NCBI GenBank assembly: GCA_963770895.1
Contig: CAVYRF010000003.1
Span: 24,110 to 88,109 of the forward strand
From: an uncultured Acidobacteriota bacterium
GTDB lineage: Bacteria > Acidobacteriota > Thermoanaerobaculia > Multivoradales > UBA5704
Direction: 5' to 3'
DNA: 64,000 nt
Part shown: in pieces, positions 48,098-49,764 of the stretch
How positions within the stretch are numbered: position 1 is the stretch's first letter
How the letters are laid out: every line of letters begins with the position of its first letter
Notes under the pieces: model-generated
Seen by the model: the letters and a program-made list of their open reading frames with translations, nothing else
The model's database searches: none
Told to the model about the DNA's origin: nothing
Translations under genes and position numbers: made by a program

Positions 48098-48248
48098 AGC
48101 GGTTTCTATCCGAGGCAGGCGAACGTGCGATCACCATACCATGAGGGCCTTGCCCCAAAAGGACCAAGGATCGAAATGGAGCGGAAGGAAAGGTCAGGCA
48201 AGCCAGCCGGCCCCCTTCGCTGAGAGGACCGGCCGCCAAGCCGGGGGT

Positions 48249-48413
48249 TCAGCAGAGGCAGCTGCCGTGGCCGCAGAGCGTGCCGTCGCAGTTCGAGCAG
48301 GTCCCGACCGTGGTACAGCCGCCCACCTGGGAGATGCCGCCGGCGGCCTTGGAGATGAGGTCCGCCTCCAGGTTGCGCAGGGTTTCGCGATGCAGCCGTA
48401 GTCTTTTCTTCAT
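48249..48413 (-). CDS. Putative RiPP (class I lanthipeptide-like) precursor peptide, 54 aa
   Basis: MKKRLRLHRETLRNLEADLISKAAGG|ISQVGGCTTVGTCSNCDGTLCGHGSCLC*; purine-rich GGGAAGG upstream; too short for the ORF track. Confidence 0.8.
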   Translation of the reverse strand: MKKRLRLHRETLRNLEADLISKAAGGISQVGGCTTVGTCSNCDGTLCGHGSCLC

Positions 48414-48604
48414 GGTTCACGCCTTCCCGCCGCCTGACGCGGCATCGGCCTTCGTTTGCCCAGGTCAACCGCATGCCGACATCCTTCTGAGGGGACGCCA
48501 GCCCACCTTGCAACCCTTGTTTAGCGAGTGTAAGTGAACCGCGTGAAGCTGAACATAGCAAGGTGCGGTATGTCCGGGCCGAGGGTGGCGGCGGCAAGGA
48601 ATCG

Positions 48605-48627: not shown

Positions 48628-48762
48628 GGAGTGGTCGGTTTGCATCCTCAAAGAGCAATGGAGTCATAAGGTTGTGGTTCGTTGACGGGCGATCGTATGG
48701 TAGCGAAAACAAAGCAGCGCCATCCGGATGAGAACCGTGCGGTGGGCGCAAGGAGGGCAATC

Positions 48763-49764
48763 ATGGGTTGGCGCCGTGGGCTTCGATCCTTCGAAGCCGC
48801 CGTTCACAGAGCGGAAAGAAACTCCCAACGTCGCGCAAGGCAACATCAGCAGCATGTGCGGGCCGTCGCGAAGGTCCAGGCACATGCGCGTGCTGTAGGC
48901 GCAGTGCAAGATTTCAATGCACGCATTGCTCATCTAACCTCCCTCCACAAATCGAGTGCTGCAGAAATCGATTGGAATGGGCGCGCACGAGCCGCGGCGC
49001 CAGTTGCTGCGGAGCGGTTGGACTCGCGAACCGATGCCGCGCGGCACAAATTGGAAAGCTATGCGCCTTGGCGTCTGGCGGTGCTTCTCGGGCTGGCGGC
49101 ACGGCGCCGGGCAAGACTGGAACAGGAGGTTGCGGCGGCGGAGAAAGCGGATGAACAGGCCTACGTCGAGTCGACTCAGCGTTTTGAGGCGGCGCTACAG
49201 GAGCACGGTGTGCAAAAGGCGATGGCTGAACGTCTGTTGCGAGGCGACGGTCAGGCCATGATTGAAGTTTTTCGCTCGCTGCAACCGTTTGCGGCAATTT
49301 CCGATCTGGCCGCGAAGTTCACCGTTTCCGCCACTGGCGGGCGCAACATGTCGGCGGATATCAAAGTTCTTGGGCAAGAGATCGTTCCGAGGCAGGCCGT
49401 TACCATGCTGAAGACTGGCAATGTCAGCGTGCGGGAAATGTCGAAGACTTCTTATCAGAACGTGTACCGCGATTATGTCTGTGGCCTGGTGTTGCGAGTT
49501 GCGAGGGAGCTGTTCGCGATCCTGCCGCTGGATTCCGTGCTGGTCACCGCGGTGGAGGCGCTGCTCAACAAACAGACCGGGAACCTTGAGGATCAAGCGA
49601 TCGTTTCGGTTTTTATCCCGCGCCAATCGTGGGTGAAGCTCAATCTGGCGGCAGTCGATCCGTTCGAATGTTTGAGAAATTTCACCCACACGGTCGACTT
49701 TCGCTCCAACGCAGGTTTCAGTCCGGTACAGCGGGTGAAGTTGCAGCTGCCGAGTGGGAAATAG
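48763..49764 (+). CDS. Hypothetical protein with an N-terminal coiled-coil-like region, in a lower-GC islet
   Basis: Long ORF with atypical codon usage; MGWRRGLRS...; YRDYVCGLVLRVARELFAILP...NKQTGN. The start could be 48697. Confidence 0.7.
   Translation: MGWRRGLRSFEAAVHRAERNSQRRARQHQQHVRAVAKVQAHARAVGAVQDFNARIAHLTSLHKSSAAEIDWNGRARAAAPVAAERLDSRTDAARHKLESYAPWRLAVLLGLAARRRARLEQEVAAAEKADEQAYVESTQRFEAALQEHGVQKAMAERLLRGDGQAMIEVFRSLQPFAAISDLAAKFTVSATGGRNMSADIKVLGQEIVPRQAVTMLKTGNVSVREMSKTSYQNVYRDYVCGLVLRVARELFAILPLDSVLVTAVEALLNKQTGNLEDQAIVSVFIPRQSWVKLNLAAVDPFECLRNFTHTVDFRSNAGFSPVQRVKLQLPSGK

Follow-up and report, generated by a model that had tools for sequence, protein, structure and literature searches.

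A small, probable precursor gene on the minus strand

The window analysed here is a whole stretch of 64,000 nucleotides of DNA from an uncultured Acidobacteriota bacterium (G000:C3:24110-88109; genome of 8.16 Mb, 71% GC, three contigs, 95% complete), and its element in question is a short open reading frame (ORF) that had been proposed, from the letters alone, to encode a lanthipeptide-like precursor. This precursor peptide gene (P0001, 48249..48413, minus strand) reads from ATG to TGA as 54 amino acids (aa), does not overlap any called gene and, as had been claimed, comprises a basic leader, an AGG site and a 28-aa core. The leader, residues 1-26 (48336..48413), is common to 97 siblings, its boundary being placed at the double-glycine site. 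It contains a predicted LxLxRx5L recognition motif (residues 5-15, 48369..48401), assigned from sibling conservation and a modelled LanB interface, and ends in a Gly-Gly at which a C39 peptidase would presumably cleave (48336..48341). The predicted LxLx[K/R]x5L pattern is present in its Arg form: Arg stands at the position of Lys in the published LxLxKx5L motif, with the spacing and the Gly-Gly present. The core (48252..48335) has by count the six Cys and seven Ser/Thr originally reported. A Shine-Dalgarno-like GGAAGG (48422..48427) lies 8 nt 5' of the ATG, and an 11-bp G+C hairpin lacking a U tract (48208..48235) lies 3' of the stop codon on the same strand; the hairpin is possibly a transcript boundary (z = −1.26, not significant), and a terminator scan did not report it.

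The leader profile gave 42.9 bits for the 54-aa ORF as opposed to a maximum of 12.6 bits on the reversed genome used as a control, so the ORF is beyond chance and is a real gene. Its G+C fraction at third codon positions is 0.87, and a Pfam search with the ORF returned no match. The window had been described as devoid of LanB, LanC, LanM, radical SAM enzymes and exporters, and no LanB, LanC, LanM, radical SAM or C39 family matched among its called genes (39 plus 4 scanned; called by a crude caller that may miss small or low-GC genes). Whole-genome searches likewise placed no Lan, YcaO or C39 protein on contig C3, the search for radical SAM enzymes being confined to the window.

A family of 98 precursors and its cores

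Sibling genes were sought genome-wide by growing a seed of 40 ORFs bearing the motif into an iterated leader profile, which listed 107 matches. Ninety-eight members scored 26-52 bits, compared with 20 for the next match and 12.6 for the reversed-genome maximum, which bears out the expectation of sibling precursors throughout the genome. Nine matches below 26 bits were dropped, at least two of which resemble real divergent members; 98 is therefore a floor. The members are spread over all three contigs (31 on C1, 66 on C2 and only P0001 on C3) and are intergenic, with 0 overlaps with genes of the crude caller. A Shine-Dalgarno-like word precedes the start codon in 86 of 98 members, compared with 29% in a background of 2447 genes with less dependable starts. 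Only 17 members have a sibling within 1.5 kb and only 6 a Lan enzyme within 5 kb. Among 523 neighbours of siblings no maturase family recurred except LanC (5 genes, one cluster), the other repeats being large common families, and the upstream regions shared no word besides the ribosome-binding site and showed no sigma-54 pattern.

The leader consensus is MKKxxxKLxLxRETLxxL...AGG, in which Arg is usual in place of Lys and E10, T11 and L15 are kept in at least 90% of members; a rule searching for GG, AG or GA found one of these pairs at the double-glycine position in 92 of 98. The class I leader model NF038153 matched 25 members at E≤0.01 (one sibling at 28.5 bits, another at 21.8), TIGR04117 matched one member weakly, and the nearest named ESM Atlas clusters are class I lanthipeptide leaders (0.87-0.88, as a lead only). 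The cores, by comparison, are hypervariable, with a median best core-core identity of 39% and a length of 12-48 aa (median 25). They consist of 16% Cys, 15% Thr and 8% Ser, compared with 0.8, 5 and 5% in the proteome, and Ser plus Thr equal or exceed Cys in 96 of 98.

When Ser/Thr were shuffled with Cys positions fixed, an excess was observed 5 residues (z 7.9) and 6 residues (z 3.6) before Cys, values that shared ancestry of the cores may inflate, whereas no offset after Cys exceeded z 1.6. The number of Cys is odd in 72 of 170 cores. Because Ser/Thr are enriched before and not after Cys and many cores have an odd number of Cys, the cores appear better suited to thioether rings, in which a dehydro residue nearer the N terminus joins a later Cys, than to disulfides. 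A whole-core shuffle for Ser/Thr before Cys (0.94 versus 0.69) was discarded, as it was confounded by the late position of Cys in the cores. Ser2/Cys7 and Thr8/Cys13 of the 28-aa core match the favoured 5-residue spacing of the family, and rings may form at these two pairs.

Thirteen of 74 relatives' cores matched a core of this genome at 53% identity or more, compared with 1 of 222 shuffles. The matched cores, most of which are not at syntenic sites, retain 92% of Cys, 79% of Ser/Thr and 59% of other residues, which indicates that the family is under selection.

Candidate enzymes and their distribution among relatives

Maturases and an exporter had been expected elsewhere in the genome, and LanB, LanC, LanM and a C39 exporter were indeed located (radical SAM/SPASM proteins having been looked for in the window only). 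There is one full-length LanB (1177 aa, C2 at about 5.18 Mb), whose frame holds both domains (PF04738, 553 bits; PF14028, 241 bits) and which is homologous to the solved dehydratases of MibB/NisB type. Residues Y115, R118, R122, T124, D162, D372, R893 and R947 are invariant in 65 homologues and, as we assume, correspond to the catalytic residues of NisB. The gene is convergent with a LanC that keeps AHG, WCYG and LCHG, which we take to be the catalytic and zinc motifs, and the nearest precursor is 18.8 kb away. Three strong C39 matches were found in the genome; at one locus (C2, about 2.97 Mb) a C39 peptidase-ABC exporter gene and an HlyD gene are followed directly by an intact LanC. Besides a second glutamylation domain, which is weaker, and an elimination domain on its own, the genome also encodes one class III LanKC, one kinase-cyclase protein, one YcaO and two LanM; each LanM has a mersacidin-type precursor of its own that passes the TIGR03898 cut-off. 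The closest LanB homologues (62-73% identity) come from records titled Thermoanaerobaculia or Acidobacteriota, which suggests a Thermoanaerobaculia-like lineage; in the first six listed, LanB and LanC are again convergent, and the flanks fetched contain no precursor.

A complex of the precursor with LanB residues 10-800 was modelled and scored 0.61, as against 0.01 for the best control; the mark on this score is reached by 116 of 157 solved pairs and 2 of 215 mismatched ones, counts that hold roughly with the alignments used here. The runs agree in at least 53% of contacts, with a partner pLDDT of 41-44, and place leader residues 3-16 against LanB 211-218; within this segment L214 does not vary in the homologue alignment, and H213 and V215 hardly do. 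The model supports the putative binding of the leader to LanB.

Co-occurrence was examined in 80 genomes of the order, each at least 90% complete. LanB was present in all 18 precursor-positive genomes; conversely, precursors were found in 18 of 20 LanB-positive genomes (the two exceptions having the weakest LanB matches, 31-39% identity) and in 0 of 60 LanB-negative ones. A close homologue of the C39 exporter (58% identity or more) was likewise present in 18 of 18. LanM, on the other hand, was missing in 7 of the 18, including three genomes with 20-54 precursors, and of 30 LanM-positive genomes 19 had no precursor. In one family (f1), three of ten genomes are without precursors, LanB and exporter together, two of them belonging to a genus in which four of six are positive. 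Ten genomes have 1-7 precursors; for seven of these the place of the precursor is listed, and in six it is no more than 2 kb from LanB, often together with the exporter. Eight genomes have at least 20-54 precursors and one LanB each (82 candidates scored). All nine same-genus genomes have precursors (1-70) and LanB, so that, as had been anticipated, the family is common to relatives. One of them (G002, 94% complete) has at least one precursor, 3.5 kb from LanB, while its congeners have 18-70 (150 of 236 candidates scored), which points to rapid change in the size of the library within the genus.

Among 77 loci of LanB homologues, read with up to 6 kb of flank, 22 also contained the leader at 20 bits or more, some of them from Myxococcus, Archangium, Cystobacter and Holophagaceae records; loci titled Acidobacteriaceae carry a KKVTL leader variant. 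At L266 (G015:C7) and L153/L155, 5-6 near-paralogous precursors stand in tandem beside LanB, possibly an intermediate between a single cluster and a dispersed library.

Several LanC-like proteins beside siblings differ from the usual form. Those at L007:6907-8436 and L008:6050-7302 have no zinc-ligand motifs (WAYAD and IG(F/Y)G replace WCYG and LCHG) and adjoin the only two Cys-free, His-containing family members, whose leader variant RIxxETLLPL is common to siblings in L019 and L020; a cross-link chemistry other than thioether formation is possible there. A divergent LanC-like protein beside a sibling at L011:7037-8464 has CCG where others have CHG, and a review ties a CCG motif to relaxed specificity in ProcM-type enzymes (PMC12328550). 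At L004:4225-9266 a tandem pair of LanC genes and an ADOP permease gene come after a 72-aa sibling whose core repeats Cys every 3 to 4 residues; permeases of ADOP type are found repeatedly beside siblings (cluster of 11). A 62-aa ORF on the plus strand at L014:3674-3862, near the stand-alone elimination domain, has a different double-glycine leader and a Gly/Thr/Cys repeat core.

Proposed maturation in trans, its alternatives and the genomic setting

Taken together, the 54-aa ORF is quite probably a class I lanthipeptide precursor matured in trans. The peptide would be translated from its own ribosome-binding site, and its leader strand is modelled to bind the leader-recognition region of the single full-length LanB, which would then dehydrate Ser/Thr of the core. 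Class I dehydration proceeds by glutamylation and elimination, and the same is presumed here. A LanC, most likely the LanB-paired or the exporter-adjacent one, would close (methyl)lanthionine rings by adding Cys thiols, any surplus Cys may remain free or form disulfides, and the C39 peptidase-ABC exporter would cut after Gly-Gly and secrete the core, which may then have some ecological role. An ancestral precursor-LanC-LanB-exporter cluster, still intact in low-copy relatives, could have been broken up here, while the precursor genes would have multiplied, diversified and moved between genes; the outcome would be a library of prochlorosin type served by a class I enzyme. The clustering of precursor and enzymes, usual for class I though not strictly defining, is thus found in low-copy relatives and not here. 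The earlier idea of a dispersed precursor matured in trans, one of a prochlorosin-like library, gains support from the 98-member family, the distant enzymes and the co-occurrence in relatives, and the type of maturase, initially left between LanB, LanM and SPASM proteins, has been narrowed in favour of class I with its single full-length LanB.

Three other explanations have to be weighed against this. The ORF might belong to the class I family and yet be silent or decaying, a recent passenger in a variable intergenic site that is rarely or never expressed and lacks selective value. This would agree with the finding that none of 14 dehydrogenase loci of relatives (flanks up to 1.5 kb, several shorter) contained a leader match, with the 61% GC stretch that the precursor shares with a single-copy low-GC ORF, with the lack of a close orthologue among the relatives examined, and with a search that found no sigma-70-like promoter for the precursor; since ORF, ribosome-binding site and leader are all intact, however, and the family is under selection with Cys preferentially kept, we consider it unlikely. 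It is less probable still that the core, though secreted through the C39 exporter, is no lanthipeptide and that its six Cys form three disulfides or bind metal. The even number of Cys and the CxxC and terminal CxC spacing of the 28-aa core would suit such a peptide, but the many odd-Cys cores, the three-fold enrichment of Thr, placed 5-6 residues before Cys, and the strict co-occurrence with LanB speak for a lanthipeptide. Similarly, we see little chance that another maturase acts on the core, be it one of the two LanM, LanKC, the kinase-cyclase protein, the split LanB pieces, YcaO or a radical SAM enzyme. All of these except the radical SAM enzyme were located in the genome, and one sibling lies about 3.5 kb from a LanM; both LanM, however, have a mersacidin-type precursor of their own, and LanM, the rival that was compared across the order, does not follow the precursors there.

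Some observations nevertheless weigh against maturation by LanB in trans. The 80 genomes are kin and not independent, and the LanB search had a stricter first look, so that the comparison falls short of a formal test; moreover, the C39 exporter homologue occurs in 6 precursor-negative genomes as well. LanB lies on C2 and the 54-aa gene on C3, although 66 siblings share the contig of LanB. The genome has nine stand-alone LanC-like proteins, giving several possible cyclases for the 28-aa core, and the 54-aa ORF itself stays below the NF038153 cut-off (12 versus 22 bits). The complex was modelled with LanB alone, and because solved NisB-type relatives and NisB-leader complexes exist, its score may reflect likeness to them. 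Finally, conservation of this ORF, one of the points on which the original prediction depended, was not borne out for the core: the best match of the 28-aa core among 76 relatives' precursors (30 best loci of two genomes plus 9 others) was 43% identical, and with no close orthologue among the relatives examined, the evidence for selection concerns the family and not this copy. One of the core matches of at least 60% (L222) proved to be an artefact of core splitting.

Prochlorosin-type precursors carry long Nif11-type leaders. Unlike the ProcM/SyncM systems, the family here has a leader of 20-35 aa and 98 precursors in one genome. Those libraries share with the present one a single synthetase, many precursors, a conserved leader, hypervariable cores and processing of double-glycine type (PMC12328550), with 79 SyncA precursors for the one LanM SyncM; they are, however, class II LanM systems of marine cyanobacteria, whereas here a class I LanB and several LanC occur in an acidobacterial lineage. 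Maturation by a single LanM, as in the cyanobacterial class II libraries, does not fit this family, given the precursor-positive genomes without LanM and the separate precursors of both LanM. Class I leaders of the LxLxKx5L type have been reported from Bacteroidetes, with a Gly-Gly end and often a C39 protease in the cluster (10.1101/2020.03.13.990614). Such precursors (NF038153; PF28317 in the ESM Atlas) are alike in leader pattern, Gly-Gly, LanB/LanC and C39 protease, but differ in that here Lys is mostly Arg and about 98 genes lie mostly far from the enzymes. From the same bacterial class as the best LanB matches, Thermoanaerobaculia, the tha/the clusters have yielded characterised lanthipeptides; their ThaA/TheA are class II precursors of mersacidin/lichenicidin type with LanM and correspond to the two LanM-adjacent precursors of this genome and not to the 98-member family (PMC13083261). 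Two small putative lanthipeptide ORFs appear in the supplement of that work, where they were disregarded.

The literature searched, which left most subscription papers uncovered, held no account of class I precursors scattered as a library through an acidobacterial genome, and the precursor tables of Walker et al. may list members; what appears new is that a class I enzyme is combined with some 100 dispersed precursors, each part being known separately. We lean towards a wider proposal, in which one LanB and a few LanCs would mature about 100 unrelated cores encoded all over the chromosome, with tens per genome across an uncultured Acidobacteriota family. Such a system would correspond, within class I, to the prochlorosins; its substrates would outnumber the 79 of SyncM, its precursor genes would turn over by intergenic insertion, and in a sub-branch Cys-free, His-containing cores would meet LanC-like proteins without zinc ligands, maybe for a non-thioether cross-link. 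If true, combinatorial lanthipeptide libraries evolved a second time, on class I machinery and in an abundant uncultured lineage, and this LanB would work with a short leader while accepting a very wide range of cores, a property of use for macrocycle display. Cluster-based mining would have overlooked natural scaffolds by the thousand, and a genome series from a one-precursor cluster to a 100-precursor library would be at hand for testing why bacteria keep such libraries.

As to the surroundings of the precursor, an aldehyde dehydrogenase-family gene lies on one side, and a low-GC 360-aa ORF followed by an MFS permease gene on the other. In 2 of the 14 relatives' loci the MFS gene directly adjoins the dehydrogenase gene, and none of the 14 had a leader match; the precursor, together with the single-copy ORF of 59% GC, therefore resembles an insertion specific to this lineage. 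Three flanking genes (aldehyde dehydrogenase-like, MFS and 2OG-Fe(II) oxygenase) were weighed as possible parts of the system and rejected, the dehydrogenase being kept without the precursor in relatives. An RNA run gave no cover on the ORF and covered a small share of the whole stretch, and is evidence neither way. A second sequencing run of unknown kind, not counted as evidence, gave one contig (depth 3.1) that spans most of the ORF and, read by hand, differs from it by two synonymous changes, one amino-acid change and one 3-base deletion, with the frame kept. The 360-aa ORF (48682-49764, plus strand) had no match in Pfam, NCBIfam or PADLOC; it looks horizontally acquired, and in the ESM Atlas it falls near unnamed clusters at 0.94-0.96, with a weak lead to DUF4236.
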